DNA of 64,000 nt. Origin: Chloroflexota bacterium. GTDB taxonomy: Bacteria; Chloroflexota; Limnocylindria; Limnocylindrales; CSP1-4. The notes beneath the pieces were generated by a model, which did no database searches, was not told the DNA's origin, and worked only from the letters and a program-made list of their open reading frames with translations. The stretch is taken from contig JAXDKT010000161.1 of assembly GCA_034666965.1 (NCBI GenBank), positions 5,603 to 69,602 on the forward strand, given 5' to 3'. Position numbers and translations under genes: made by a program. Positions 2,464-16,234 of this stretch are shown here, one piece after another (position 1 is the stretch's first letter; every line of letters begins with the position of its first letter).

Positions 2464-2476
2464 GCGGCGCCGTGCC

Positions 2477-3181
2477 GTGATCCCGCTCCGGGACGCCAAC
2501 CCCGTCCGCCGCCGACCGGTCGTCACCCTGGCGATCATGGCGGCCTGCTTCGCCGTTTTCGGACTCGAGCTCGGGGCCCAGGCGGCCGGTGGCGAGGCGG
2601 GCCTCGAGGCTTTCTTCCGGGCGTACGGCGTCGTGCCGGTCGACCTGCTCGACGCGGTCGACCACGGTCGATGGCTGAGCATGCCCGTCCTGACCCTGAT
2701 CAGCCATCAGTTCCTGCACGGCGGCTGGCTCCACATCGGGGGCAACATGCTCTACCTGTGGATCTTCGGCAACAACGTCGAGGACCGCCTGGGCCGGCTG
2801 GGCTTCCTGCTGTTCTATCTGGCCGGCGGAATGGTTGCCGCGTTGACCCAGGTCGCGATCGACCCGGCCTCGGACGTCCCGCTGGTGGGCGCGTCGGGAG
2901 CCATTGCGGCCGTGCTGGGGGCCTATTTCGTGCTGTTCCCGCGGGCACGGGTCCTGTCGATCGTGTACGTGGTCGTGTTCTTCCAGCTGATCGAGGTTCC
3001 CGCGGTCTTCGTCCTGGGGCTGTGGTTCCTGCTCCAGGTCATCGACGGGCTGGCCTCGCTGGGGGCCACCGACATCGTGGGCGGCGTGGCGATCTTCGCC
3101 CACATCGGCGGCTTTGTGGCGGGCATGCTGGCCGGGCTGCTGCTTCGCTCGCGCGGGCCACGACCGCTCGGTGCGGCTTGA
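2477..3181 (+). CDS. rhomboid-family intramembrane serine protease
   Basis: Six or more TM segments. Catalytic GASGAI (GxSG) motif and downstream FAHIGGFVAG His motif. HxxxN-like HGGWLHIGGNMLYLW segment. Confidence 0.85.
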   Translation: MIPLRDANPVRRRPVVTLAIMAACFAVFGLELGAQAAGGEAGLEAFFRAYGVVPVDLLDAVDHGRWLSMPVLTLISHQFLHGGWLHIGGNMLYLWIFGNNVEDRLGRLGFLLFYLAGGMVAALTQVAIDPASDVPLVGASGAIAAVLGAYFVLFPRARVLSIVYVVVFFQLIEVPAVFVLGLWFLLQVIDGLASLGATDIVGGVAIFAHIGGFVAGMLAGLLLRSRGPRPLGAA

Positions 3182-3229
3182 GCGGCCGCCCAGCGTGGCC
3201 CGCCGGATGACCGTGGGATAATCGCGGCC

Positions 3230-3784
3230 ATGACCGAGCTCGTGGAGATGGTCGTCGAGAGCGTCCGGGTGCACATGCCCTCGAGCCAGCACGTGGTCAT
3301 CCTCAAGGAGCTCGACCACGAGCGCTACCTGCCGATCTGGATCGGCCCCTGGGAGGCGAACGCGATCGCCATGAAGCTCCAGGGCGTCTCGTCGGAACGG
3401 CCGCTCACCCACGACCTGTTCTCGGCGACCCTGGACGAGTTGGGGGTCGCCGTCCGGCGAGTGGTCATCTCGTCGCTGGCCGAGGAGACCTTCCATGCCC
3501 GCCTGTTCCTCGAGTCCGGAGGGCGCGAGCTGGAGGTCGATTCGCGCCCGTCCGACGCGCTCGCCCTGGCCGTTCGGGTCGGCGTCCGGATCTTCGCCTC
3601 GGACGAGGTCCTCGACCGCGCCGGTGTTCGGCCTGACGATGCCGCCGGCTCGTTGGAGGGCCTCGAGTCGACCGACGACGCGGCCAACGTGGCCGACCCG
3701 CGCCTGGCGGTCTTCCGGGAGTTCATCAACTCGCTCGATCTGGGGGGCGATCTGGGAACCCGGGAGGGCCCCAACCGCGAGTAG
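3230..3784 (+). CDS. bifunctional nuclease (BFN/DUF151) domain protein
   Basis: VILKELDHERYLPIWIGPWEANAIAMKLQGVSSERPLTHDL ... RPSDALALAVRVGVRIFAS matches the BFN family signature. Confidence 0.7.
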   Translation: MTELVEMVVESVRVHMPSSQHVVILKELDHERYLPIWIGPWEANAIAMKLQGVSSERPLTHDLFSATLDELGVAVRRVVISSLAEETFHARLFLESGGRELEVDSRPSDALALAVRVGVRIFASDEVLDRAGVRPDDAAGSLEGLESTDDAANVADPRLAVFREFINSLDLGGDLGTREGPNRE

Positions 3785-3856
3785 CCACGCCTGAACCGCG
3801 AGCGGCGATGGGGGCTCAAGGCTCATCCGCGGCGAGCGCCGAGGCATGCGCCGCGC

Positions 3857-4690
3857 TCACTCGTCGAGGATGGACTCCCCCCGAGCCAGGGCCCGGTCGG
3901 GCGACGCCCACATCCGCACGCGCAGGAGCCAGAAGTCGCGCACGGCCCTGAGGATGACCTGCGGGTTGGCCCCCGTTGGCGACCCCGCCGTGCGTGGATA
4001 GTGGGGAACGCCGACCTCGACCACGGTTCGGCCCAGCGTTCGCAGGCGGATCAACAGCTCCGCCGACAGGAACGCGCCGCCCGATTCGACCCGGATCCCG
4101 TGCAAGGCTTCGCGGCGGTAGAGCTTGCAGGCGCAGTCGACGTCGGTCGCCCGCAGCCCGAAGAAGATCCGATTGGCCAGCCGGTAGCCCCGGGCGTAGA
4201 TCGTCCGGATGAGCGGGTCGGCCCGGCGAATCCGGTACCCGATCACGACCGCCGGCCGATCCCGGGCCGACATGCGCTCGGTCAGGCGACCCAGGTCGGC
4301 GATCCTGAACTGCCGATCCCCGTCGGTGAACGCCACGAAACCGAACCGGGCGGCGTGGAACCCGGACCGCAGCGCCGCGCCATAGCCCAGGTTGGTCGGG
4401 TGGTGGACGGCCCGGACGATTCCGGGATGGGCCGCGGCCAGCCGGTCGGCGATCTCCCCGGTCCGATCGCGTGACCCGTCGTCGACGACAACGATCTCGA
4501 ACCGATCGGCCAGCGTCGGCAGGGTGGCCAGCGCCTCGATCACGAGCGGCTCGAGGTTGTCTTCCTCGTTGTGGGCCGGAAAGAAATAGGACAGCTCCGG
4601 GACCCGCACGGGGTCACCGGTGGGCGCGCCTTCCTGTTGGCCAAGGTGTGCGTCGCTCACGGCGGGAATGTCTCCGGGGTGCTCATCCAA
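3857..4690 (-). CDS. GT2 polyprenol-phosphate mannose synthase-like glycosyltransferase (DPM1/Ppm1 catalytic-domain type, stand-alone)
   Basis: GT-A motifs: FPAHNEEDNLEPLV, VVVDDGSRDRTGEI, NLGYGAALRSGF, FTDGDRQF (DxD-like). No fused Lnt-like membrane domain. TTG start at 4690. Confidence 0.8.
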   Translation of the reverse strand: MDEHPGDIPAVSDAHLGQQEGAPTGDPVRVPELSYFFPAHNEEDNLEPLVIEALATLPTLADRFEIVVVDDGSRDRTGEIADRLAAAHPGIVRAVHHPTNLGYGAALRSGFHAARFGFVAFTDGDRQFRIADLGRLTERMSARDRPAVVIGYRIRRADPLIRTIYARGYRLANRIFFGLRATDVDCACKLYRREALHGIRVESGGAFLSAELLIRLRTLGRTVVEVGVPHYPRTAGSPTGANPQVILRAVRDFWLLRVRMWASPDRALARGESILDE

Positions 4691-4796
4691 GTCGACGGCC
4701 GGCCTCGAGCGTCCGACGAAGGACCCTGCGCTATACTCCGCTCCACCTCAGCGCTCGTGCAGGAGACGGACCTCTCTGGCAGTCGTTCATCCCGGT

Positions 4797-7700
4797 GTGC
4801 CCGACCGAGGCAGCGCAGCACCGAGGCGGTCGTTCGAGGCTGCCGGAGCGCTCCTCGCGATCCTGATCCTCGGTCTCGCCTTCCGCCTCATCATCGCATA
4901 CGTCCTGCTCCCGGGGTCCGGCTTCGGTGTGGACCGGAGCACCTTCCAATTCTGGGCCAGCGACCTCGCGGCGCACGGGCCGTTCGGCTTCTACGGACGC
5001 GGCTTCTTCGTCGACTACACCCCCGGGTATCTGTACGTCCTGTGGCTGGTCGGCATCGTCGGCAATGCCCTGGGCGTCATCGGCGACCTGATCAAGCTGC
5101 CCGCGATCGTTGGCGACGTGGCGCTCGCATGGCTGATCCACTCGTTCGTCCGGGAGCTCGGTGGCTCGCGGCGGGCGGCCCTGATCGGGGCCATCCTGTT
5201 CCTGGTCAACCCGGTGACCTGGTTCGACAGCGCCATCTGGGCGCAGGTCGATTCGGTCGGCGTGGTCTTCCTGCTCCTGGGCCTGCGCGATCTTTGGCGG
5301 CATCGCCCCGAGCGGGCCTCGCTCTTCGCGGTCGTCGCCGCGATCGTCAAGCCGCAGCTGGGCATCCTGGTCCCGATCATCGCCGTCGTCCTGCTCCGCC
5401 GCCACGTCTACGAGTGGCTCCGGCCGCCCGTTGCGGCGTCCGCCGGTGGAGGCCGGTCGACGGATCTGTCGCCGGCCCGCCCGCGCGGCGATCCCTGGTT
5501 CGACCGGCTCGGCACCGGTCCGATCCGCCTGCTCACCAGTGCCGGAATCGGCCTGCTCAGCGCGATCGGGCTGTGCCTGCCCTTCGGGTTGTCCCCGGTC
5601 GGGCTCCTCGACCTGGTGGCCCGGGCCGCGGGCGGATACCCGTACGTCACGGTCAACGCCTACAACCCCTGGGCGCTCCTGAGCCATGACGGCAACGGGC
5701 TGGCTCAGAACGGCCAATGGCTGCGCGATGTGGCGGGTGATCAGACCGGCCAGGCCGCAACCTTGCTCGCCGGAATCCCGGCCGTCTACATCGGGACGGC
5801 CCTGCTCCTGACGGCGATCGCTGTGGTGGTCATCGTCGTCGCCCGCTGGGCCCGGCCCACCCTGCTCACCCTGGACGGCGTCGGGCGGAGGATCGCGGTC
5901 GTGACCGACGAGCGCCGCCTGCTCGTGGTGGCGCTGACGGTCCTTGCCCTGGTCTTCTTCGTGCTACCGACCCGGGTCCACGAGCGCTATCTCTACCCAG
6001 CGTTTGCCCTCGGCGCGATCCTCGCGGCCAGCTCGCTCCGCTGGCGGATCGCCTATGTCGTCCTGGCCCTGGCCAGCTTCGCGAACCTGTACGCGATTCT
6101 GCTCACGCCCTTCTACGAAAACCCGGGGATCAAGGACTGGCTGGGGATCGGCGACGCGATCCGGTCGCCACTGGGGGTGACCCTGGTGGTCGCCGCCCAC
6201 GTGATGGTGCTCGTCTGGGCCGCGACTGAGCTCCGGCCGGCGGCCATCCGCCGACTCGACCTCGAGACGCTCCGCGACGCCCTGCGGGAGCGCGCCCGCG
6301 AGGACGGCAGCCCCGCCGACACTGAACCGGCGTCCAGGGGCCCGGAAGCCGGGGCCCGGCTGCGAGACCTCGAAGGCGCCCGGTCTGGCGACCCGGCTGC
6401 CATCGGCAGCGGCCCAGTCGTCATGGGCGCGCTCCGCCCCGACAGCCAACCCGCCGGCCAGTCGGGCGGGCTGCCCCTGCCCTTTGGCCTGGGCGCGGTT
6501 CGGGCCCGGTTGTCCGACCGATCGCGCAGTCTCCACGGTGAGGGCGGCGGGCGGCTCGACCGCCTCGACGTCTGGCTCGTCATCGTCATCGTGGTCGCCA
6601 GCCTGGTCCTGCGGACGTTTCGGTTGTCCGAGCCGTACCGGATGCACTTCGACGAGGTCTACCATGCCCGGACCGCGACCGAGTTCCTCCAGGACTGGCG
6701 CTACGGCCAGCCGCACGACATCTACGAGTTCACCCATCCTCACCTGGCGAAGTACGTCATCGCCCTGGGGTTGATCGTCGCCGGCGACGACCGGGTGACG
6801 GCCCAGCGCTCGCTGGGGACCGCGACCCGGGACGTCCTGGTCGAGCCGCGCTGGCTCGATCCGTCCCTGCCCGGGGGTCGGGCCGGGGAACGGTTCTATG
6901 CGGCCGGCGGGGACCGCCTCACCGCCTACGACCTGGTCGGTCGCCAGGAGATCGCGAGCTGGCCGGTCCCGGGGGCGAGCGCCCTGGCCCTCGATCCGGT
7001 CGCCCATCGGGTCCTGGTCGGGACGGACGGCGGCGCGCTGCTCGCACTCGATACGACCGCCGAGCTCGACCAGCTCCGGGCCGGCGGCTCCGGGAGCGGC
7101 TCGGGCAGCCCGGCGGCTGAGCTCGGCGGGCCGACGGCCCTGGCCGAGGTCGGAGCCCCGATCGTCCGAATGGCCATCACCGACGACGGGACCGGGTTGG
7201 CCCTGGTCACCGGCGGCGGCGAGGTCGTCTCGGTCGACCCCGGCAGCGGCGCCGTCCTCGCCCGGACGCCGATCGAAGGCGCCGCGGACGTGGTCGACGG
7301 CGGGCTCGGGAATGGCCTGACCGCAGACCCGACGAGCGTGACCGACCCGGCGGCCGCGGCCGGCGTGCTGGCCGGGATCACCGGCGGGGACCGGGCCGAC
7401 TACCAGGCCCGCCTGGCGAAGGCGGCCACCGGCGACGCCGGCGAGCTCGTCGTGCTGGCCGGCTTCCCGGATGACCAGCGTGCGCCAATCGATGCCGCGA
7501 TCGCCGATGGCCGGCTGACAGGCTTCACGGTCACGCCCCTGCCCCGGATCGCGGTTACCGGTTCGAATGGGCTGTCATTCGTGTCGCCGGCCACCGGCGA
7601 GGTTGTCGATACGATCGAGCTCGATGCCGCGGGTCGCGGCGTGGCCAAGGTGACCGGGATCGACAAGCCGACGGTGTACGTCGCCCTGGCCGACCGGCGG

Positions 7701-10208
7701 GTGGCCGTCGTCGAGATCGGCGAGTCCGACGGCAAGGTGCGGCCGCATCTCGACACGACGTTCTGGGTCCCGGGCGATGTCCGCCGCGTGCTGTTCGACG
7801 AGCCGACCGGGATGGTCCACGTGCTGGGCACGGCGCCGGATGGCTCGGGCGACACGATCTACGTCGTGGAGCCGCACGCCAACGCGGTCTATGCCGATGC
7901 CCGCCTGCCGTTCGCGGCTGGAGCCTGGGCCCTCGATGCCGACGCGATGAACCCGAGCGGCGACCGCGAGGCGATCTTGGTCTCGTCCTCGGACGGGACC
8001 CTGGCGTCGGTCGATGCCGGTCAGCACGCCTTCGCCTGGCGCCTGCCCGGAGTGATCGCCGGGGCCCTGATGGCGGGGCTGATCTTCCTCCTGGTCCGGA
8101 CCCTGTTCCGCCGCCGCGACGTGGCGGTCCTGGCCGGGATCCTGGTGCTGGTCGACGGGATGCTCTTCGTCCAGAGCCGCATCGCGATGAATGATGTCTA
8201 CGTCGGGTTGTTCATCGTCGCCGCATATGCCCTGTTCGCGCCGCTGTGGACCGGTCGCTGGCGCAGCCCCTGGGCGTTCTGGGTCGTCCTGCCAGTGGTC
8301 GGGGTGCTGCTCGGCCTGGCCCTCGCCTCCAAATGGGTGGCGCTGTACGCCGTCGCCGGGATCGCCGTCCTCATCCTGGGCCGCTCGGCGCTGGGGCGGA
8401 TCGTCCTGATCCTGGGGTTCATCCTGGGAACGACCGTGCTGGGCCTCATGGCCATGGCGGTCCCGGCCGGGGCCCTCACCAGCGGTGGCAACCTTCTGTT
8501 CGTCGGGCTGATGGTCGCGCTGACGCTGGTCGCGGTCGTCGTCACGGTGCTCCACCCGATCGCCTGGTCGCTCGAGGAGACCCGCCTGGCCATCGTCGGG
8601 CCGGCGGCGCTCGGGATCCTGGTCTTTCTTGTTGCGGTGCCCCTCGGCCTGGCGTCGAAGCCGTTGACGCTCGGTCCTCTGACCGTGAACCCGATCGAAG
8701 TCGCCCTGACCCTGATCCTGGCCTCGGGCGGCGTCTGGCTGCTCATGCGCTTCGCCGGGCTGTGGGGCATCGGTCCACTGGCGCCTCGACCCGATCCGGA
8801 CGATCCGGTCCTTCTGGCCGATCCGCCGGCCCAGCCTCCGGAGGGCTGGCTCCGTCCGGGGGCCATGCTCGGCCTGCCGATCGTCTGGGCGGCCATCTGT
8901 CTGGTGGCCATCCCGCTGGCGGTTTACGTCGTGTCATACGTGCCCTGGGTCGCCCTCGGCAACCGGATCACCGACGGCTGGCCGCCGGGCAACACCGGCC
9001 AGACCCTGCTGGATCTGACCCGCTCGATGTACGACTATCACAACGGCCTCCGAGCGACCCATGCCGCCTCGTCGCCGTACTGGGCCTGGCCGTTCGACCT
9101 CAAGCCGGTCTGGTTCTACCAGGACAGCTTCGATGCCGGGACCGCCGGGGCGATCTATGACGCAGGCAACCTTGTGGCCTGGTGGCTGGCGGTCCCGGCG
9201 ATGGCCTTCGTCGCCTGGCAGGCATTCAAGCGCCGAAGCCTGGGCCTGGGCCTGATCTTCGTGGCCTTCGCGTTCCAGTGGATGCCCTGGGCCCGGATCG
9301 ACCGGGCCACGTTCCAGTACCACTACTACGCGGCGTTGCCGTTCGTGCTCATCGCCCTGGCCTACTTCCTGGCCGAGCTGCGCCACGGACCGTCGGCGCG
9401 GACCTGGGCCCTGGCTCGGCTGTCGGCGGCCCTGGCCGTGCTGGGTCCGGCCCTGCTGTGGCTGTTCAAGGGACCACTGTGCGCCTTCGTCAGGGTCGAG
9501 GCGGTGAACCCCGGATCGCAGGCGTGCGTGGCCACCGCGCCGGGCCAGATCGTCCTCACCTGGCGGTCGGCCGGGCTGGCCGGGGTCCTCCTGGTCGCCG
9601 GGGCGCTGGTCGTGGTCCAGCTGCTCCGCCTCGGGGCGCCGGAATCGTCACCGGGAGAGACCGGCCGACGGCTGGTCCGCTTGGCCCTGACCGCCGCGGC
9701 CGGGGTGGTCGGGCTGCTGCTTGCCGGCAGTCAGCTCAGCGACACTCCGATCCTGACCCAGGACGGCTTCCGGATCGAGCCGATTGCCCTGGTGGTGCTG
9801 GTCGGTCTGGCGCCGGTCGCCTGGGTCGTGGCCACGGCCCGGGACGTGCGTCGGTTCGTGGCCGGCGCGGTGCTGGCCTGCCTGGCCTGGTTCGTGATCT
9901 GGTATCCGAACCTGTCCGGCCTGCCCCTTCCAGCGACGATCGTGAACGCCTACCAGGGCTTGCTCCCGACCTATCTCTATGCGTTCCAGTTCCCGGTGAA
10001 CACGGATCCGGTGGTGCCGTTCCACCTGTTCGCCCCGGTCAAGGTGCTGGGCCTGGCCGTGCCCGGCGCACTGCTGCTGTTCGTCGCGCTGTTGATCACC
10101 TGCCTGGTCGTCGGCTACAGCGCCTGGACGTGGCGGGTCTCGCTCGCCGAACGCAAGCTCGCCGACCGCGATCCTGGCTCGGTCAGCCGGACCGGCCAGG
10201 CGGGCTAG
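4797..10208 (+). CDS. giant (about 1800 aa) polytopic GT-C glycosyltransferase fusion: N-terminal GT-C module plus PMT(GT39)-like protein O-mannosyltransferase module with a beta-propeller-like insertion
   Basis: Track ORF 4620..10208. Start trimmed to in-frame GTG 4797 so it does not overlap the divergent GT2 start; this is uncertain. N-module: FGVDRSTFQFWASDLAAHGPFGFYGRGFFVDYTPGYLYVLW plus many TM helices (PMT_2/DUF2029-like). From about codon 620: RMHFDEVYHARTATEFL ... EFTHPHLAKYVIALGL (PMT loop-1 DE motif). A 350-aa beta-rich repeat region follows, then PMT core TMs (RIAMNDVYVGLF) and a C-terminal HNGLRATHAASSPYWAWPFDLKPVWFYQD block (PMT 4TMC-like). Confidence 0.75.
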   Translation: MPDRGSAAPRRSFEAAGALLAILILGLAFRLIIAYVLLPGSGFGVDRSTFQFWASDLAAHGPFGFYGRGFFVDYTPGYLYVLWLVGIVGNALGVIGDLIKLPAIVGDVALAWLIHSFVRELGGSRRAALIGAILFLVNPVTWFDSAIWAQVDSVGVVFLLLGLRDLWRHRPERASLFAVVAAIVKPQLGILVPIIAVVLLRRHVYEWLRPPVAASAGGGRSTDLSPARPRGDPWFDRLGTGPIRLLTSAGIGLLSAIGLCLPFGLSPVGLLDLVARAAGGYPYVTVNAYNPWALLSHDGNGLAQNGQWLRDVAGDQTGQAATLLAGIPAVYIGTALLLTAIAVVVIVVARWARPTLLTLDGVGRRIAVVTDERRLLVVALTVLALVFFVLPTRVHERYLYPAFALGAILAASSLRWRIAYVVLALASFANLYAILLTPFYENPGIKDWLGIGDAIRSPLGVTLVVAAHVMVLVWAATELRPAAIRRLDLETLRDALRERAREDGSPADTEPASRGPEAGARLRDLEGARSGDPAAIGSGPVVMGALRPDSQPAGQSGGLPLPFGLGAVRARLSDRSRSLHGEGGGRLDRLDVWLVIVIVVASLVLRTFRLSEPYRMHFDEVYHARTATEFLQDWRYGQPHDIYEFTHPHLAKYVIALGLIVAGDDRVTAQRSLGTATRDVLVEPRWLDPSLPGGRAGERFYAAGGDRLTAYDLVGRQEIASWPVPGASALALDPVAHRVLVGTDGGALLALDTTAELDQLRAGGSGSGSGSPAAELGGPTALAEVGAPIVRMAITDDGTGLALVTGGGEVVSVDPGSGAVLARTPIEGAADVVDGGLGNGLTADPTSVTDPAAAAGVLAGITGGDRADYQARLAKAATGDAGELVVLAGFPDDQRAPIDAAIADGRLTGFTVTPLPRIAVTGSNGLSFVSPATGEVVDTIELDAAGRGVAKVTGIDKPTVYVALADRRVAVVEIGESDGKVRPHLDTTFWVPGDVRRVLFDEPTGMVHVLGTAPDGSGDTIYVVEPHANAVYADARLPFAAGAWALDADAMNPSGDREAILVSSSDGTLASVDAGQHAFAWRLPGVIAGALMAGLIFLLVRTLFRRRDVAVLAGILVLVDGMLFVQSRIAMNDVYVGLFIVAAYALFAPLWTGRWRSPWAFWVVLPVVGVLLGLALASKWVALYAVAGIAVLILGRSALGRIVLILGFILGTTVLGLMAMAVPAGALTSGGNLLFVGLMVALTLVAVVVTVLHPIAWSLEETRLAIVGPAALGILVFLVAVPLGLASKPLTLGPLTVNPIEVALTLILASGGVWLLMRFAGLWGIGPLAPRPDPDDPVLLADPPAQPPEGWLRPGAMLGLPIVWAAICLVAIPLAVYVVSYVPWVALGNRITDGWPPGNTGQTLLDLTRSMYDYHNGLRATHAASSPYWAWPFDLKPVWFYQDSFDAGTAGAIYDAGNLVAWWLAVPAMAFVAWQAFKRRSLGLGLIFVAFAFQWMPWARIDRATFQYHYYAALPFVLIALAYFLAELRHGPSARTWALARLSAALAVLGPALLWLFKGPLCAFVRVEAVNPGSQACVATAPGQIVLTWRSAGLAGVLLVAGALVVVQLLRLGAPESSPGETGRRLVRLALTAAAGVVGLLLAGSQLSDTPILTQDGFRIEPIALVVLVGLAPVAWVVATARDVRRFVAGAVLACLAWFVIWYPNLSGLPLPATIVNAYQGLLPTYLYAFQFPVNTDPVVPFHLFAPVKVLGLAVPGALLLFVALLITCLVVGYSAWTWRVSLAERKLADRDPGSVSRTGQAG

Positions 10209-11422
10209 GCCGGCGCCAGGGGATCGGGCTCGACGGCCTCCGTCGTCGAGCTGACGACCCGCGGCGACGGCGGGACCTCGGCGCGGAAGTCCGGAGGGAG
10301 CGCGCCCTGGGCCGCGAGGCGACGGATGACGAAGCCGTAGTAGGTCTCGACCCGATCGGTGATCCGCTCCCAGCTGAATGCTTCGGCACGCTCCCGGCCG
10401 CTCTCGCTCATCTGCTCGCGGAGGGCGTCGTCGACGAGCAGCCGGCCGATGGCCGAGGCCAGCTCGCGCGGCTCGCCGGGCGGGACCAGGAGGCCCTGCT
10501 CTCCGCGCCGGACCACCCCCTTGTAGCCGTGGATATCCGAGGCCACGATCGGCGCGCCGGCCGCCATCGCCTCGAGCAGGACGATCCCGAACGACTCGCG
10601 CCCCGTGGCCGGCGCGACGAACACGTCCGCGGTGCGGAACAGCTGGGCCTTCTCGGCGTCGGTCACCCGACCCAGGAACTCGACCCCCGCCAGGCGGCGG
10701 GTCAGCACGTAGCGCCGTGCCTCGCGCTCCTGCGGACCCGAGCCGACGACCAACAGCCGGCAGGCGCAGCCGGTCTTGCGCAGGATCCGGTAGGCCTTGA
10801 GCAGGTCGAGCAGGCCCTTGCGCGGCTCATGGCGGCCGAGGAAGAGCAGGTTGCGGGTGCCGTCCTGCCAGCGCGCGATGGGCACCGCCTTGCGGTAGCG
10901 GTCCACATCGACCCCGTTGGGGATGACCTTGTAGTCGCCCGGGACGAAGCGATCGATGAAATGGCGGGCAGCCGCGCTGACCGCGATCCGGCCGTGAAGC
11001 AGGCGGGCATGGCCCTGCATCACCCGCGCCCCGAACTCGTACGACAGCGAGAACCCGGCGTAGGCGTGGAACGTGGCCACATTCACGCTCCGCGACCGGC
11101 GCAGGAGGATGAGCGACAGGAAGGGCACGAAGGGCTCGTGGAAGTGGAGCACGTCGAAGCGTTCGCGCTCGAGCATGTCGTCGACCAGGCTGACGTAGCG
11201 GGGCGAGACGGTGACCGTCCCGACGGACCCGTTCATGGGCACGCTGAAGCCCTTGCCCAGGCGGATCACGTCACCCTCCGAGGCGCGCTGCAGCCCGTGG
11301 CTGCTGCTGATGATGCGCACGTCATGGCCGTGCAGGCGGAGGTTCTCGTAGAGATATCGGACGTGCTCGTTGACGCCGCCCGGGACCGGGTAGACGTAGG
11401 GCGTGACGAGGCCGATCTTCAC
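10205..11422 (-). CDS. pimA: GT4 phosphatidylinositol alpha-mannosyltransferase PimA-like
   Basis: MKIGLVTPYVYPVPGGVNEHV, GRHEPRKGLLDLL, ESFGIVLLEAMAAGAPIVASDIHGY. These align closely with mycobacterial PimA N-terminal, EX7E-region and C-terminal motifs. It is the last gene of the PI/PIM operon. Confidence 0.85.
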   Translation of the reverse strand: MKIGLVTPYVYPVPGGVNEHVRYLYENLRLHGHDVRIISSSHGLQRASEGDVIRLGKGFSVPMNGSVGTVTVSPRYVSLVDDMLERERFDVLHFHEPFVPFLSLILLRRSRSVNVATFHAYAGFSLSYEFGARVMQGHARLLHGRIAVSAAARHFIDRFVPGDYKVIPNGVDVDRYRKAVPIARWQDGTRNLLFLGRHEPRKGLLDLLKAYRILRKTGCACRLLVVGSGPQEREARRYVLTRRLAGVEFLGRVTDAEKAQLFRTADVFVAPATGRESFGIVLLEAMAAGAPIVASDIHGYKGVVRRGEQGLLVPPGEPRELASAIGRLLVDDALREQMSESGRERAEAFSWERITDRVETYYGFVIRRLAAQGALPPDFRAEVPPSPRVVSSTTEAVEPDPLAPA

Positions 11423-12240
11423 GTCTCCACCTCGGGCTCGACCGGCCGATCGCTTCTCGGCGCGTAGCGTGGCGGACGGGACCGGCCGCCCGGATAGCCG
11501 TGGTCCCGACCGGTGCCATCCCCCCGGACGCGGCCGCCGAACTCGTCGCGGACGTCCCGGCCACGCTTCCGGAGCTGCCGGCCGAACACCGCCAGCTGGC
11601 TGCCGGTCGGATGGGCGACACCGTGCCAGCGGGTCTGCCCCGCGAGGATCGCAACCCGCAGATCGTCCGCGCTGCGGCCCGGGAAGGTGGTGTAGCCCTG
11701 CCCGATCGACTCCAGGGCATGAGCGTCACTGGAGCCGATGCCGGCCAGGCCGTTGGCCGCGATGAACTCGGCGACCCGCCGACCGGCACGCCCCAGGGCG
11801 GTCGGGTTGAACGCCTCCAGCCCATCGGGATGGACCGCGCGGTCGGGATCCGCCAGGAGTCGGCGGAGGACCGGCGCCTGGGCGCACAGCGGGTAGGGGA
11901 AGAGAGGATGGGCTGGGATCGCCAGCCCGCCCTGGTCATGGATTGCGGCGATCGTGTTGCGGAGCGACCGCCAGGGCCGGATCCGCTCGGTCAGGAACAG
12001 CCCGAGCAGGTGGCCGCCCAGGGTCGAGATCTCCTCGCCGACGATGACCTCCAGCTCCAAACCCCGATCCTGAGCCAGCTCGCGCGCCGCGAGCGCCGAG
12101 TCGATCCGCTCGTGATCGGTCAGGGCGATGACATCGAGGCCGGCCGGCCCGGCGGCGCGCTCGAGGATCTCGATCACGCTGGCCGTCCCGTCGGAGGCAA
12201 GCGAATGGATGTGCAGGTCGGCGCGTCCTTCGGAGGTCAC
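11419..12240 (-). CDS. PHP-domain metal-dependent phosphoesterase
   Basis: ADLHIHSLASDG ... DVIALTDHE ... AIPAHP ... SSDAH: the PHP His/Asp motif set. GTG start at 12240 overlaps the upstream acyltransferase stop by 4 nt (GTGA). The 3' end overlaps the pimA start by 4 nt. Low-complexity Arg/Gly C-tail. Confidence 0.7.
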   Translation of the reverse strand: MTSEGRADLHIHSLASDGTASVIEILERAAGPAGLDVIALTDHERIDSALAARELAQDRGLELEVIVGEEISTLGGHLLGLFLTERIRPWRSLRNTIAAIHDQGGLAIPAHPLFPYPLCAQAPVLRRLLADPDRAVHPDGLEAFNPTALGRAGRRVAEFIAANGLAGIGSSDAHALESIGQGYTTFPGRSADDLRVAILAGQTRWHGVAHPTGSQLAVFGRQLRKRGRDVRDEFGGRVRGDGTGRDHGYPGGRSRPPRYAPRSDRPVEPEVET

Positions 12241-13247
12241 CGCCCGGACCCCGTCTCGAGGTCGGGCCAGATCGGGAAGAACGCCCCGAACCACTGCTCC
12301 GGCGCCCGGGCGATCGCGAGCTCGAACAGGCGCGCCTCCTCGGCGACGAAGGCCGTGACCCGCTCGCGCCGCGAACCGGCCGTCGGCACCGCCAGCGGGT
12401 CCAGGCGACCCACGTAGCGGCCGCCCGGCAGCCGCCGGACCGAGGTGAGGTACGCCGGCGCGCCGGTCTCGATGGCGATTAGCGCGGGCCCCAGCGGGAT
12501 CGAGGCCGGTGCCCCGAACAGGGACGCGCCGATCCCGCCACCGGTCAGGTCCCGGTCGCCGACGAGCCCCACCGGCTCGCCCCGGGCCAGGGCCGCCATA
12601 AGCTCTCGGCGCGCCTCGCGCAGGCCGACGATGCGGATCCCGAGGCTGCCCCGGGTCCGCTCGAGGTAGTCCTGCAAGGCGGGGTCGCCGATCGTCTCCA
12701 TCGGCGTCGTGAGGGGCCGGTCGGCATGGACCGCCGCGACGTACGCCTGGAGCTCGATGGCCCCATAGTGGAGGCCGATGAAGATCCGCGGCCCCGCCTC
12801 GGCGAAGGCCGCTGCAAAGGCCTCCGGCGTCTCCACCGTGAGCCGCTCGGCAAGGTAGGCCGGCCGGAGCGCGGGTGCCCGGGCCACGTCCAGGTAATAG
12901 CGGGCGTACTGCCGGAAGGCCGCTCGGACGAGTCGTTCGAGGGCCCGTGGATCATCCGCCGCCGCCCGCGTCCGCGCGTCGGCCAGTCCCTCCGCGGTCA
13001 ACCAGCTGACGACTCGGCCGAGGTTGCGGCGGGCCTGGGCGGCGCGTCGTCGATCGGTTCGGTACCAGACCTCGCCGGCCAGCTCGGCCAGCTCGCGCAG
13101 CGGGGCCTCGGGCAGACGGCAGGCCAGTCCCGAGGCACGGGCCACGAGCCCGGCCACCAGGCGTTGGCGGAAGCTGCCCCGCGCCCGGATCGGGGCCATC
13201 GCCGCCGGCCGGGCGGTCTCGTCGGGCGCGGTCGCCATGCGGCTCAT
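12237..13247 (-). CDS. LPLAT (HtrB/LpxL/PatA family) lipid acyltransferase, second tandem copy
   Basis: The 710-aa track ORF was trimmed to ATG 13247, which overlaps the upstream stop as ATGA. The upstream 374 codons are Arg/Gly junk overlapping the neighbouring gene. Residual protein: WYRTDRRRAAQARRNLGRV ... IFIGLHYGAIELQA ... GDRDLTGGG ... FGAPASIPLGPALIAIETGAP: lauroyl/myristoyl-acyltransferase family signatures. Confidence 0.75.
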   Translation of the reverse strand: MSRMATAPDETARPAAMAPIRARGSFRQRLVAGLVARASGLACRLPEAPLRELAELAGEVWYRTDRRRAAQARRNLGRVVSWLTAEGLADARTRAAADDPRALERLVRAAFRQYARYYLDVARAPALRPAYLAERLTVETPEAFAAAFAEAGPRIFIGLHYGAIELQAYVAAVHADRPLTTPMETIGDPALQDYLERTRGSLGIRIVGLREARRELMAALARGEPVGLVGDRDLTGGGIGASLFGAPASIPLGPALIAIETGAPAYLTSVRRLPGGRYVGRLDPLAVPTAGSRRERVTAFVAEEARLFELAIARAPEQWFGAFFPIWPDLETGSGR

Positions 13248-14272
13248 CGGGCCGGCCGGCCGGCCGCCATCTGTGCCGCGCGCGCCTCGAGGGCCGTTCG
13301 CTCGGCCTCGGTCTCCGGCCACATCGGCTTGAAGCTGTACCACTGGTCCGGGGCTGCGGCGATCACCCGTCCCAGTGCGTCGGCGATCTCCTGGGTCGCG
13401 CGGAGCACCTCCGCCGGCTCGGTCGAGGCCACCCGGATGGGCGCGTCCGTGGTCGCATGGAAGCGCCCGTCGGGCAGGCGTCGGGCAACCACCGGCAGGA
13501 TGACGGCACCGGTCTTGCCGGCCAGGGTGGCGGGACCCGCGGGCAGGGTCGTCCAGGCCCCGAACAGGCGCACCGGGACGTCTCCGGGCCGGTATCCCCA
13601 GTCGACCAGGAGGGCCAGCATCTCGCGCCGCTTGAGCACGCCGTACACCTCGCGCAAATTGCGCCACGGGATGACGGTCGCGCCCCAACGGGCGCGCTCC
13701 TCGCGCAGCCGCTCGAACAGCCCGGGAAAGGTCGAGTCGTCGGCCACGCCCGACAGTGGCCAGCCGCGCCACCCGATCCCGGCGGCGATCGCCTCGTTGT
13801 TGCCGACGTGGCCGGCGGCGAAGATCACCCCGTCCGATTGGCGCCAGACCTCCTCGACGTGGTCGATCCCGGCCGGATCCAGCAGCGCCCCGGCCGCCTC
13901 GGCACTCAGCGACGGGAGACGCATCAGCTCGACCAGATAGCGGGCGTAGCTGCGATAGGCGCGGAGCGCCATCCGGCGCACCGCCGGATCGTCGGGCGGG
14001 AGCCCCAGGACGTGACCGAAGTTCTGGTTCGACCAGCGTCGCTTCGAGGGCCACAGCAGGTACGACGCCTGGACGAACCAGCCGACCACGGTTGCGGCCG
14101 GACCGGCCGGCAGGCGGGCGAAGATCCACTCCGCCGCCCGGTAGCCTGCGACGGCGGTCGTGTCGAGCACCCGCCCGGTACCGGCCACGCGGCGATGAGG
14201 GGCCTCGAGCGATCGCCTCCGGCTCGGGGGGATCGGCTCGCTCGTCGCGGGTCGATCCGGCGCAGACGTCAC
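13244..14272 (-). CDS. LPLAT (PatA-like) phosphatidylinositol-mannoside acyltransferase, first tandem copy
   Basis: [17 protein letters not shown] ... [17 protein letters not shown] ... [35 protein letters not shown]: HtrB-family motifs. Sits between ino1 and pimA as patA does in mycobacteria. Confidence 0.8.
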
Positions 14273-15513
14273 TGGGTCCCGGCCGCCACCTTCGCCTTGG
14301 TCCCCGCCAGGCGCTTGAGCGCCCGCCTGCCCGGTGCCTCGGTCCCGACCAGGGTCTCGTCGTCGTCACCCCGGATGAAGGCCTCGACCCGGTTGTACGC
14401 CACGTCGTCGTGGATCTGGATCGGTGGGCTCTTCATGAAGTAGCTCGACGGCGCGACGAGGGTCCCCTTGAGACCGCGGTCGAGTCCCAGCTTCAGGCAG
14501 CGGATCGCATCGGTGATGACCCCGGCGCTGTTGGGGCTGTCCCAGACCTCGAGCTTGAGCTCAGCGTTGAGGGGCACGTCGCCGAACGTCGTGCCCTCCA
14601 TCCGGATGTAGCACCACTTCCGGTCGAGCAGCCAGGGAACGTGGTCGCTCGGTCCGACGTGGACGTCGTCCGGATCCATCTCGTAGTCGAGCATGCTCGT
14701 GACGGCGTTGGTCTTGGAGATCTTCTTGGACTCGAGTCGTTCTCGCTCGAGCATGTTGAGAAAGTCGGTGTTGCCGCCGAAGTTGAGCTGGTAGGTCCGG
14801 TCGAGGCGGACCCCCCGGTCCATGAACAGGCGGGTGAGGACGCGGTGGCTGATCGTGGCACCGACCTGGCTCTTGATGTCGTCGCCGATGATCGGCAGAC
14901 CCTCGTCGGCGAAGCGGCGCTGCCAGTACGGCTCGCGGCCGATGAACACCGGGATGGCATTGACGAACGCGACGCCGGCCCGGAGGGCCTGCTCGACGTA
15001 CCACTTGGTGGCCTCTTCACTGCCGACCGGCAGGTACGAGACCATCACGTCGACCTCGCGCTCCTTGAGGATGCCGACCACGTCGGCGGTCGGGCCGGGC
15101 GCCTTCTCGATGATCTGGCTGAGGTACTTGCCCAGGCCGTCGTGGGTCATCCCCCGGTCGACCTTCACGCCCATGGGGGGCACGTGCTGGAAGACGTAGG
15201 TGTTGTTGGGCTTCTGGTAGATGGCCTCGGAGAGGTCCTTGCCCACCTTGTTCTTGTCGATGTCGAACGCGGCCACGTACTCGATGTCGCGGACGTGGTA
15301 GCCGCCCAGGTCGACGTGCATCAGACCCGGGACGAAGTCGTCCGTCCCGGCGTTCTCGTAGTAGTAGCGCCCCTGGATGAGGCTGCTGGCGCAGTTGCCG
15401 ACGCCCACGATCGCGACCCGGATCCTGCCGTCCTTGCGCGCCCCACCCGCGGTCGGCTTGGCGCCGTTCGCCGCCTGGGTCCCGTTCGTGCCGTTCTTCC
15501 CGGTCTTGGCCAC
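14269..15513 (-). CDS. ino1: myo-inositol-1-phosphate (inositol-3-phosphate) synthase
   Basis: [18 protein letters not shown] (NAD Rossmann), [47 protein letters not shown]. Full-length 414 aa, Ino1 family. Confidence 0.9.
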
Positions 15514-15523
15514 CTGCTGTCTC

Positions 15524-16234
15524 CTACTTCCCGTCGCTCGCGACGGCCTGCTGCCTGACGTGGAGGATGCGTTGGATGACGGTGATCGTGGCGCCCAGGG
15601 CGATGATCCCCAGGGCGAGCTGGAGGATCACGATGCCCACCGGTACCGCGCCGGCGCCGGCCCCCAGGCCGGCACCGCCGCCGGTCCCCGAGATCCCGGC
15701 GAGGATGAGTCCGAGCGAGAGGACGATCAGGCGGACTTCGCGGGGCATCAATCCGACGGCGGCCATGCCCGTCCCCGTGGTGAACCCGAGACCTTCCGAC
15801 CTGGCCCTCGTGTAGCTGACCATGAACGCCGATCCCATCGCGGCCGCCGCCAGCACCGGGCCAGCCGCGTTCCCGCCGGCTTGAGCCAGGCCGGCGGCGA
15901 CCCCGACGTACACGAGCGCCTCGCCCCAGCGATCGAAGACCGAGTCCATGAACGCGCCGAGGTTGGAGACCTTGCCCGTCGCCCGGGCGAGGGTACCGTC
16001 GAACATGTCGAAGACCCCGCCGAGGAAGACGACGATCCCGCCGATCAGCCACTGCTGCAGGCCCAGCAGGATCGCCCCGACGACGGTGATCGCGAAGCCG
16101 ATCAGGGTCAGGCCGTTGGGGGTCAGGCCCAGCCGGCCGAGGAACAGGGCGACGGGCTCGGCCAGCGTCCTGACCCGGGCCCGGGTGCCGGGACTGACCA
16201 GCGAACCGCGGCCGGACGGCCTCGTCGCGCTCAT
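15524..16234 (-). CDS. pgsA: CDP-alcohol phosphatidyltransferase, phosphatidylinositol(-phosphate) synthase PgsA1-like
   Basis: [12 protein letters not shown] ... [10 protein letters not shown] (D-x2-DG-x2-AR...G-x3-D-x3-D motif). Five or six TM helices. The ATG at 16234 overlaps the regulator stop by 4 nt. Confidence 0.85.

Follow-up and report, generated by a model that had tools for sequence, protein, structure and literature searches.

A conserved polypeptide of Ca. Limnocylindria (Chloroflexota) that joins two different GT-C glycosyltransferase modules and carries a beta-propeller in its PMT loop 1

In the window analysed here, a 64,000-nucleotide stretch of a Chloroflexota contig, a small GT2 gene stands next to a gene that appears to encode two GT-C membrane modules in a single polypeptide. 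This raises the questions of whether the long gene is genuine, what each module is, and whether the modules act together. An ORF scan gave a minus-strand frame at 3857..4690 and a plus-strand frame at 4620..10208 (at most 1862 codons, GC3 of 0.90), and these coordinates and strands bear out the divergent arrangement initially described. The start assigned by NCBI, GTG 4797, yields 1803 aa, and protein P0001 matched this product with 100% identity and 100% coverage. No match to a sigma-70 consensus was found in the intergenic region 4610..4796. The divergent genes and their parts are:

3857..4609, minus strand: GT2 gene, soluble product of ~250 aa; the ORF is open to 4690, likely start GTG 4609
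4610..4796, no strand: intergenic region of 187 bp between the divergent GT2 and fusion genes, from the sequence read
4797..10208, plus strand: fusion gene, 1803 aa, with a GT-C module, a linker and a PMT with a propeller
4797..6236, plus strand: N-terminal GT-C module, aa 1-480, ALG6/ALG3/PIG-M/PimE-like, candidate catalytic Asp46
6237..6563, plus strand: inter-module linker, aa 481-589, Arg/Gly/Pro-rich
6564..6791, plus strand: PMT TM1 and first part of extracytoplasmic loop 1, with the HPHLAKY helix after Asp-Glu
6792..8021, plus strand: seven-bladed beta-propeller in loop 1, aa 666-1075, YncE/YVTN-like, with a helical sub-insert
8022..10205, plus strand: PMT transmembrane core, aa 1076-1803, with a conserved C-terminal extension

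The fusion is a polytopic membrane protein with two different lipid-sugar-dependent glycosyltransferases, itself uncharacterised, and consists of four parts: the N-terminal GT-C module, the linker, the PMT/GT39 module, and the propeller within the latter. More than 120 full-length homologues were found (50-81% identity), all carriers being uncultured MAGs, and among the 62 complete loci in genomes of Ca. Limnocylindria, 54 encode the protein in one unbroken reading frame, which upholds the initial annotation of one polypeptide with two GT-C modules. The fusion is conserved across Ca. Limnocylindria, a whole class. The motifs FQFWASD, DYTPGYLY, HFDEVYHARTATEF, HPHLAKY and SSPYWAWPFDLKPVW, pointed out before, were all found and are invariant or nearly so among homologues.

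The C-terminal module (aa 590-1803) is a PMT, as had been proposed. Pfam PMT (PF02366; 47.4 bits against a cut-off of 22.7; match at 8025-8375, profile positions 81-196) and PMT_4TMC (PF16192; 48.5 bits against 32.4; match at 9003-9383) both exceed their gathering cut-offs, and the Asp-Glu motif is invariant. The first 80 positions of the PMT profile are displaced because of the insert; the corresponding region, 6564..6791, has a mean identity of 0.74 and aligns separately to yeast Pmt4 residues 51-110. Pmt4 and another PMT were the only PDB sequence relatives of this module, in three collinear segments. The candidate catalytic Asp-Glu is aa 618-619 (6648-6653). HFDEVYHARTA and THPHLAKY are invariant, HFDEVYH being present in all of 43 aligned homologues and lying where the first loop helix begins in a structure model that does not include PMT TM1; the C-terminal core contains an invariant SSPxWAWPxDxKPVWFY and a conserved Cys pair. 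The module scored 56.1 bits with NF058602, the NCBIfam equivalog for actinobacterial Pmt, where the cut-off is 800, and is therefore a distant PMT family member rather than an equivalog. It shares with GT39 enzymes (M. tuberculosis PMT, yeast Pmt1/2/4) the PMT and PMT_4TMC domains, the Asp-Glu motif at the start of loop 1, the HPxLAK helix, a conserved loop motif in the 4TMC region and a predicted cytoplasmic N-terminus. Unlike these enzymes, it has additional TM helices, continues for ~270 aa in a C-terminal extension and is fused to a second GT-C.

A propeller-like insert of 350 aa after TM2 had been described initially. A seven-bladed propeller is indeed present, but it is larger (~410 aa) and lies inside extracytoplasmic loop 1, where it separates the HPHLAKY helix from TM2. 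Its sequence identity to YncE/YVTN seven-bladed propellers is ~13%, and it differs from them in being an internal domain of a membrane-enzyme loop, with a helical sub-insert. Whereas this 410-aa domain occupies loop 1, the MIR domain of eukaryotic PMTs is found in a later loop, and PMTs of Actinobacteria lack any accessory domain. Arg-rich loops alternate with the conserved motifs, and the first post-propeller helix leads into an RRR; this pattern would place both the motifs and the propeller outside. Literature searches found neither a PMT with a propeller in the catalytic loop nor a natural polypeptide in which two different GT-C catalytic modules are joined. To our knowledge, characterised GT-C enzymes are all stand-alone polypeptides.

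The N-terminal module has a GT-C membrane fold with the conserved TM core and juxtamembrane helices, and its best structural match is ALG6, a glucosyltransferase. Its Pfam scores (Alg6_Alg8 14.3-14.6 bits, GT87 17.6-17.9 bits) lie below the cut-offs of 25 and do not support membership of GT57 or GT87, the latter among the HMMs that had been suggested as a check. A profile of its family, which comprises ~4000 bacterial, uncharacterised clusters at 50% identity, matched none of the PDB sequences, PimE included. Sequence identity to ALG6/ALG8 (GT57), ALG3 (GT58) and PIG-M (GT50) is 11-16%; set against these families, described as apparently eukaryote-only (Lombard 2016, PMC4973528), the fusion protein has no gathering-level Pfam match and its host is bacterial. 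The mycobacterial PPM-dependent PIM mannosyltransferase PimE (GT87) is stand-alone, whereas the N-module is fused and reaches 17.9 of the 25 bits required for GT87.

The GT2 protein matches Pfam Glycos_transf_2 (E 1.2e-25) and has a GT-A domain with a DxD motif, DGDRQ being found at residues 96-100; its homologues are 75-92% identical, 251-280 aa long and generically named in their sources. It had been called Ppm-like. PDB sequence matches to ArnC (9e-10), Pyrococcus DPMS (8e-9) and GtrB (3.5e-7) are about equal, the NCBIfam matches include PpgS and a dolichyl-phosphate hexose transferase, and no NCBIfam equivalog cut-off is reached, so that neither PDB nor NCBIfam brings GT2 closer to mannose synthases than to the makers of other lipid-phosphate sugars. 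Support extends only to the clade of polyprenyl-phosphate sugar synthases (ArnC, DPMS, GtrB), of which GT2 is a candidate member. With Ppm1/DPM1, ArnC and GtrB it has in common the GT-A domain, a DxDxQ-type motif and a genomic link to GT-C enzymes. A search for hydrophobic segments found none (maximum KD 1.22). As stated earlier, GT2 has no Lnt-like domain, in contrast to M. tuberculosis Ppm1; like human DPM1 and M. smegmatis Ppm1 it has no TM helices, and unlike GtrB, ArnC and Pyrococcus DPMS it has no C-terminal TM hairpin.

Analyses of related loci showed that a TMEM260-like GT-C gene and a gene for a 173-aa membrane protein lie between GT2 and the fusion, on the GT2 strand, in 68 of 81 relatives; in most, ~3 kb with two extra genes takes the place of 4610..4796, and GT2 overlaps the TMEM260-like gene in the same orientation. 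The tight pairing seen here therefore follows gene loss, and the adjacency of GT2 and a double GT-C, from which a dedicated, possibly processive machine had been proposed, is real at this locus but lineage-specific.

A PIM-type lipid cluster abuts the 3' end of the fusion gene and was absent from the initial annotation:

10205..11422, minus strand: PimA-like GT4 that overlaps the stop codon of the convergent fusion gene
11419..12294, minus strand: PHP-family phosphoesterase in the lipid cluster, with NCBIfam PHP-type matches
12237..14272, minus strand: two tandem PatA/HtrB-like acyltransferases (12237-13247, 13244-14272)
14269..15513, minus strand: inositol-3-phosphate synthase (Ino1; TIGR03450, E 1.6e-159)
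15524..16234, minus strand: CDP-alcohol phosphatidyltransferase, phosphatidylinositol-phosphate synthase type

The GT4 product matches M. smegmatis PimA over its full length (E 1e-61; next best 1.5e-21), and its position is conserved in relatives. For both acyltransferases the PIM acyltransferase model ranks first in NCBIfam, with E values of 5.1e-35 and 5.6e-38 and scores that stay below the cut-off, and the last gene matches both NF045883 PIPSynth (E 1.7e-35, below the equivalog cut-off) and archaetidylinositol-phosphate synthase (3.3e-37). Genes of early PIM biosynthesis, namely a PimA orthologue, PI synthesis and PIM acyltransferase genes, are present together, and the cluster is syntenic in ~60 loci; PHP_C is found in locus L001 and a PHP-GT4 fusion in L082. 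From the cluster one would expect PIM-like glycolipids in this uncultured class, which is abundant in soil and freshwater; PIMs are known to us only from Actinobacteria. The fusion gene and the cluster are convergent and not co-transcribed, and within one class common descent, and not function, may account for their synteny.

The likeliest function of the locus is mannosylation of proteins and/or PI-glycolipids. With a probability of roughly 0.55, we read the fusion as a bifunctional glycosyltransferase in which the PMT acts on proteins and the N-module adds a further sugar, supplied with donor by GT2 and with the propeller used in docking. Soluble GT2 would make the donor on the cytoplasmic face, after which it would be flipped; both active sites would face the outside of the cytoplasmic membrane and draw on a sugar linked to polyprenyl phosphate, most likely mannose. 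The divergent PMT could then transfer this sugar to Ser/Thr of exported proteins through its loop-1 Asp-Glu, and the propeller, in the catalytic loop beside the active site, could be a docking platform for the acceptor or a partner, functionally resembling the MIR domain of eukaryotic PMTs. The N-module, with Asp46 as catalytic base, may extend either the O-mannose just installed or a PIM-type glycolipid of the adjacent PimA/PatA/Ino1/PIP-synthase cluster. The linker would serve to tether the two enzymes at 1:1 stoichiometry. The active-site regions of the two modules are kept by purifying selection, motif identity being 0.67-0.80 for the N-module and 0.74-0.87 for the PMT, compared with 0.12-0.27 for the linker. 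In M. tuberculosis, GT-C enzymes including PimE elongate the first O-mannose, and PimE also acts on PIMs (PMC12331936, PMC12041525). If the modules cooperate, the fusion would offer a compact model for coupling successive lipid-linked-sugar transfers at the membrane and would reveal the part that accessory domains play in the choice of PMT acceptors.

The modules could instead be functionally independent, the fusion and its proximity to GT2 and the PIM cluster being inherited gene order and co-expression only. The linker, probably cytoplasmic, is long, has 15.6% R, is predicted to be disordered (pLDDT <50 in the model) and has a mean identity of 0.27 against 0.54-0.77 in the flanking modules. 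Independence would also fit the occurrence of stand-alone N-module paralogues in unrelated contexts, the origin of the GT2 adjacency by deletion and the convergent orientation of the lipid cluster. Against it, the fusion is kept in essentially all complete loci down to ~45% identity and is also present in a more distant lineage at ~40%, which argues for selection on physical linkage; we regard independence as possible but somewhat unlikely.

A different sugar and acceptor would keep the modules active but change their product: the product of GT2 would be polyprenyl-phosphate glucose, or an amino sugar, and the acceptor of the two GT-C modules a glycolipid or cell-wall polymer in place of proteins. 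The even spread of the GT2 matches leaves room for this, as do the resemblance of the N-module to ALG6 and Alg6_Alg8 and the low equivalog score of the C-module. The above-gathering PMT and PMT_4TMC matches and the exclusively PMT relatives in PDB speak for mannose, however, as do the PimA-like neighbour and the TMEM260-like genes of relatives, which belong to mannose pathways. Moreover, every characterised GT39 that we know of uses mannose, and the alternative seems unlikely.

A more specific form of the bifunctional reading, in which the N-module would be a bacterial sister of the ER-lumen ALG/PIG GT-C enzymes within a coupled two-step mannosylation machine, acting on PI-anchored mannolipids from the PimA-type pathway, is distinctly doubtful. 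If true, protein O-mannosylation would be physically linked, outside Actinobacteria and eukaryotes, to a toolkit for GPI/PIM-like lipid glycosylation, and the proposed PMT-related origin of lumenal glycosyltransferases would gain a concrete model among prokaryotes. The N-module is structurally closest to the ER-lumen ALG/PIG enzymes and so bears on their evolutionary origin.

That the N-module is a non-catalytic GT-C-fold domain, comparable to PIG-U in the GPI transamidase and serving as lipid-binding scaffold or substrate recruiter for the PMT, is quite improbable. Asp46 is invariant in homologues and, in the model, falls within the first turn of helix 44-60, the putative first juxtamembrane helix; K185-P-Q and H395-E-R are also invariant, and the three correspond by type to PimE D58, K195 and H321/H322. 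An autonomous enzyme would also fit the many stand-alone paralogues, which are 450-550 aa long.

Finally, the possibility that assembly or annotation merged two genes into one ORF is refuted by the comparative data, including the search for split versions proposed initially: 8 of the 62 complete loci have frame breaks, some within the linker region, but these are scattered, most of them belong to 'MFD' MAG assemblies and several loci are broken repeatedly, whereas the more than 120 unbroken proteins come from independent ENA, JGI, NCBI and Logan assemblies.

The fusion is an 1803-aa protein in which an N-terminal GT-C module (N-module) and a C-terminal protein O-mannosyltransferase module (PMT, GT39; C-module) are joined by a linker, and its gene is divergent from GT2, which encodes a soluble glycosyltransferase. 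Each part is of a known kind: GT2 is a lipid-sugar synthase, and the fusion combines a GT-C fold, a PMT-family module and a YncE-like propeller. Four features are new and, in the searchable literature, undescribed: a single chain containing two GT-C catalytic modules of different kinds, the propeller grafted into loop 1 of a PMT, the fusion's association, in Chloroflexota, with a PimA-type lipid cluster and, as the structural models suggest, a bacterial GT-C family nearest in structure to the ER-lumen ALG/PIG enzymes. Literature searches on Limnocylindria glycosyltransferases, COG5542/Gpi18-like proteins, and PimA or PI in Chloroflexi returned nothing relevant.

The best-supported reading is that the fusion is a bifunctional outer-face glycosyltransferase drawing on a lipid-phosphate sugar made by GT2. 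The analysis shows the folds, the synteny and conserved active sites in both modules; the orientation in the membrane, the sugar and acceptors used and a coupling between the modules are what we propose. GT2 would make the lipid-phosphate sugar and the fusion would use this donor at the outer face, with the PMT module acting on exported proteins as an O-mannosyltransferase; the propeller, carried on the catalytic Asp-Glu loop, would be well placed for binding a partner or acceptors. A further sugar would come from the N-module, whose acceptor could be the O-mannose: PimE is stated to be among the enzymes that elongate the first mannose in M. tuberculosis (PMC12331936). Alternatively, the acceptor could be a PI-mannoside from the adjacent pathway, as it is for PimE and GPI mannosyltransferase I. 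It is also possible, if somewhat unlikely, that the two modules are independent enzymes that are merely co-inherited, which would be compatible with the bifunctional reading. The linker between them (aa 481-589), rich in Arg, Gly and Pro and predicted to be disordered (pLDDT below 50), is the least conserved part of the fusion, with an identity of 0.12-0.27.

GT2 (3857-4609, minus strand) is a GT-A enzyme of ~250 aa (Glycos_transf_2, E = 1.2e-25) that carries a DGDRQ motif and lacks a TM segment. Among proteins of solved structure, its relatives are ArnC (9e-10), Pyrococcus DPMS (8e-9) and GtrB (3.5e-7), and its sub-threshold NCBIfam matches include ArnC, PpgS, dolichyl-phosphate hexose transferase and AglJ, while homologues with 75-92% identity carry generic names that are uninformative on the sugar. 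Sequence comparison thus supports membership in the polyprenyl-phosphate sugar synthase class; of the initial annotation of GT2 as "Ppm-like", this class stands, but mannose specificity does not follow from these relatives. Mannose is nevertheless the favoured donor sugar because the GT39 enzymes characterised so far are known as mannose users, the gene co-oriented with GT2 in relatives is marked by the domain of TMEM260, a human O-mannosyltransferase (PMC10214176), and PimA acts in a mannose pathway. A different sugar, or an acceptor other than protein, is rather doubtful.

The C-module (aa 590-1803) was above the Pfam gathering thresholds for PMT (47.4 bits vs. 22.7) and PMT_4TMC (48.5 vs. 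32.4), and its only sequence relatives in the PDB were yeast Pmt4 (E = 1.9e-6) and another PMT, matched in three collinear segments, in agreement with the PMT identity proposed initially. The NCBIfam equivalog of actinobacterial Pmt reached 56 bits against a cut-off of 800; judged by sequence, the C-module is a distant PMT. Its model (pLDDT 79, pTM 0.76), which, owing to a 1200-residue limit, begins only at the DE motif and omits TM1, shows, in order, the DE helix and the HPHLAKY helix (both in loop 1), ~29 beta strands with a helical sub-insert, a long TM helix and RRR. Because of this order, and because the insert is flanked by Pmt4 residues 110 and 139 in the alignment, the modelled beta domain is placed within extracytoplasmic loop 1, which contradicts the earlier placement of the insert after TM2. 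Fold searches aimed at the PMT core gave matches dominated by propellers. Conservation is highest in the DE loop (0.74-0.82) and the 4TMC motif (0.77-0.87) and moderate in the propeller (0.46). Additional TM helices are present in the C-module, as is a conserved ~270-aa C-terminal extension that includes a conserved Cys pair; no counterpart of this extension could be identified in characterised PMTs. The Cys pair lies in PLCxFVRVxAVNPGSxAC (aa 1561-1577; ~9477-9527 in the window). Also conserved in this extension, beyond the PMT_4TMC region, is the motif YPNxSxLPLP...NAYQGxLPTYxYxFQFP.

The N-module occupies the following part of the gene:

4797-6236, plus strand: N-module (aa 1-480)

All of its Pfam matches were sub-threshold (GT87, E = 0.0033; Alg6_Alg8, E = 0.021), and neither the single sequence nor the family profile found a sequence relative in the PDB. 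Structural matches were obtained as listed.

Structural matches of the N-module, with the two values recorded for each
ALG6: 21.4; 380
ALG3: 20.3; 354
GPI mannosyltransferase I: 20.2; 348
PIG-U: 17.0; 341
ArnT: 15.7; 280
PimE: 15.3; 333
Pmt4: 13.0; 300

The ER-lumen ALG/PIG enzymes have been described as apparently eukaryote-specific (Lombard 2016, PMC4973528). When 20 members of the N-module family were scanned singly, Pfam matches were found to Alg6_Alg8 (11 members, best 1.8e-7), PIG-U (7), GT87 (3) and PMT_2 (3). The family comprises 3958 clusters (50% identity) at E <=1e-3 and 228 at <=1e-30, and on long contigs many of its members are encoded as separate, 450-550-aa proteins whose annotation goes no further than "Gpi18-like mannosyltransferase" or "hypothetical". 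The first juxtamembrane helix has an invariant D46 in its first turn, which appears to correspond to the position of the catalytic Asp in PimE, ALG6, ArnT and PglB (PMC12041525); strict or near invariance is also seen for D73-Y-T-P-G-Y, W142/D144/Q150/D152, K185-P-Q and P391-T-R-V-H-E-R-Y. A non-catalytic, PIG-U-like N-module is improbable, since D46, K185 and H395-E-R are invariant and autonomous paralogues exist. In the model, the helices and the positive-inside rule put the Arg-rich loops all on one side and the conserved motifs all on the opposite side; the N-terminus and the linker would therefore lie on the Arg-rich side, taken as cytoplasmic. A "GT-C_B" class for the N-module was withdrawn, as the PimE paper places ALG6, ArnT, PglB and PimE in GT-C_A (PMC12041525).

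An ORF scan of the region found two ORFs, 3857-4690 (minus) and 4620-10208 (plus), the longer having a GC3 of 0.90, a codon bias like that of a real gene. The start annotated by NCBI is GTG 4797, giving the 1803-aa form to which residue numbers refer, and the protein exactly matches [quoted passage not shown]. Among 5.8 billion proteins searched, 1311 hits were found; the best 120 of these are almost all 1700-1860 aa long, with 50-81% identity and 95-100% query coverage, and their ENA, JGI, NCBI and Logan source assemblies are independent. All motifs quoted in the initial annotation were found in the fusion and are invariant or nearly so among homologues. With one genome scanned per species, N-module relatives were found in 168 genomes, the best 80 of which belong without exception to Chloroflexota, most under the label Candidatus Limnocylindria or Limnocylindrales. 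The proposed single chain is upheld: a hidden stop or an assembly artefact, extremely improbable as the origin of the fusion, was rejected because 54 of the 62 complete copies each consist of one unbroken ORF of ~1800 codons, the breaks in the remaining 8 (mostly "MFD" MAG assemblies, some broken at several sites) are scattered, and the fusion is also present in a lineage of only ~40% identity. The comparative search for split versions that had been suggested yielded two apparently split loci, L082 and L085, with gene calls fragmented throughout, suggesting assembly errors, and two proteins, P0200 and P0255, that are genuine stand-alone N-module paralogues in unrelated genomic contexts. No second copy of either GT-C module was found by tblastn in the whole 64-kb window. 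In a more distant lineage (L083, 1-11723), a GT-C island comprises a GT2 gene, one PIG-V-like gene (PF04188), one TMEM260_N-like gene and a stand-alone N-module paralogue (497 aa); directly downstream of the paralogue, and overlapping its stop with its own start, is another N-module-PMT fusion.

Gene order is kept in ~60 loci: a 760-aa membrane protein, a rhomboid (missing from some of these loci), a BFN-domain protein, GT2 (minus), the fusion (plus) and a minus-strand lipid block of GT4, PHP, two acyltransferases, Ino1 and CDP-alcohol phosphatidyltransferase. Two of the upstream genes are:

2477-3181, plus strand: rhomboid protease
3230-3784, plus strand: BFN-domain protein

A 480-aa ORF antisense to both (2405-3847, minus) was rejected as a high-GC artefact, R/D/E/Q-rich and without a Pfam match. 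The 760-aa protein (181-2463, plus) has a weakly PP2C-like N-terminus, a single TM helix (aa 316-338) and a C-terminal, beta-rich domain of ~420 aa, to which the propeller shows no similarity. Because this domain ends in a Ser/Thr/Pro/Ala-rich tail (60% STPA over the last 45 aa), the protein is a plausible O-mannosylation acceptor candidate.

The divergent GT2/fusion pair noted initially is present, but its tight adjacency is atypical: 68 of 81 relatives have a TMEM260_N-type GT-C gene (~520 aa) inserted between GT2 and the fusion, accompanied in 57 of the 68 by a gene for a 173-aa membrane protein, both co-oriented with GT2. In one relative (L001, where they span 6912-8998) the three genes overlap end to end. 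Both genes are absent throughout the 64-kb window, and since the nearest relatives (L004, L013) retain only remnants of them, the tight pair here is a product of gene loss. A promoter and terminator scan of the divergent region gave no consensus sites. Elsewhere in the window (16-64 kb), housekeeping genes account for all ten of the largest ORFs that were sampled.

The block at 10205-16234 (minus) appears from sequence matches to encode a complete early pathway for phosphatidylinositol mannoside (PIM)-type lipids. Its GT4 matches M. smegmatis PimA over the full length (E = 1e-61; next best 1.5e-21), both acyltransferases have the PIM acyltransferase as their best model (5.6e-38 and 5.1e-35), and Ino1 (E = 1.6e-159) and the PIP synthase model (1.7e-35, CDP-alcohol phosphatidyltransferase) are also matched. 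The cluster, syntenic in ~60 Limnocylindria loci, predicts PI-mannoside lipids outside Actinobacteria. The PHP-family phosphoesterase is a candidate for the phosphatidylinositol-phosphate phosphatase step. Its gene (11419-12294, minus) lies between PimA and the acyltransferases, and L082 has a single PHP-GT4 gene call (12919-14706).
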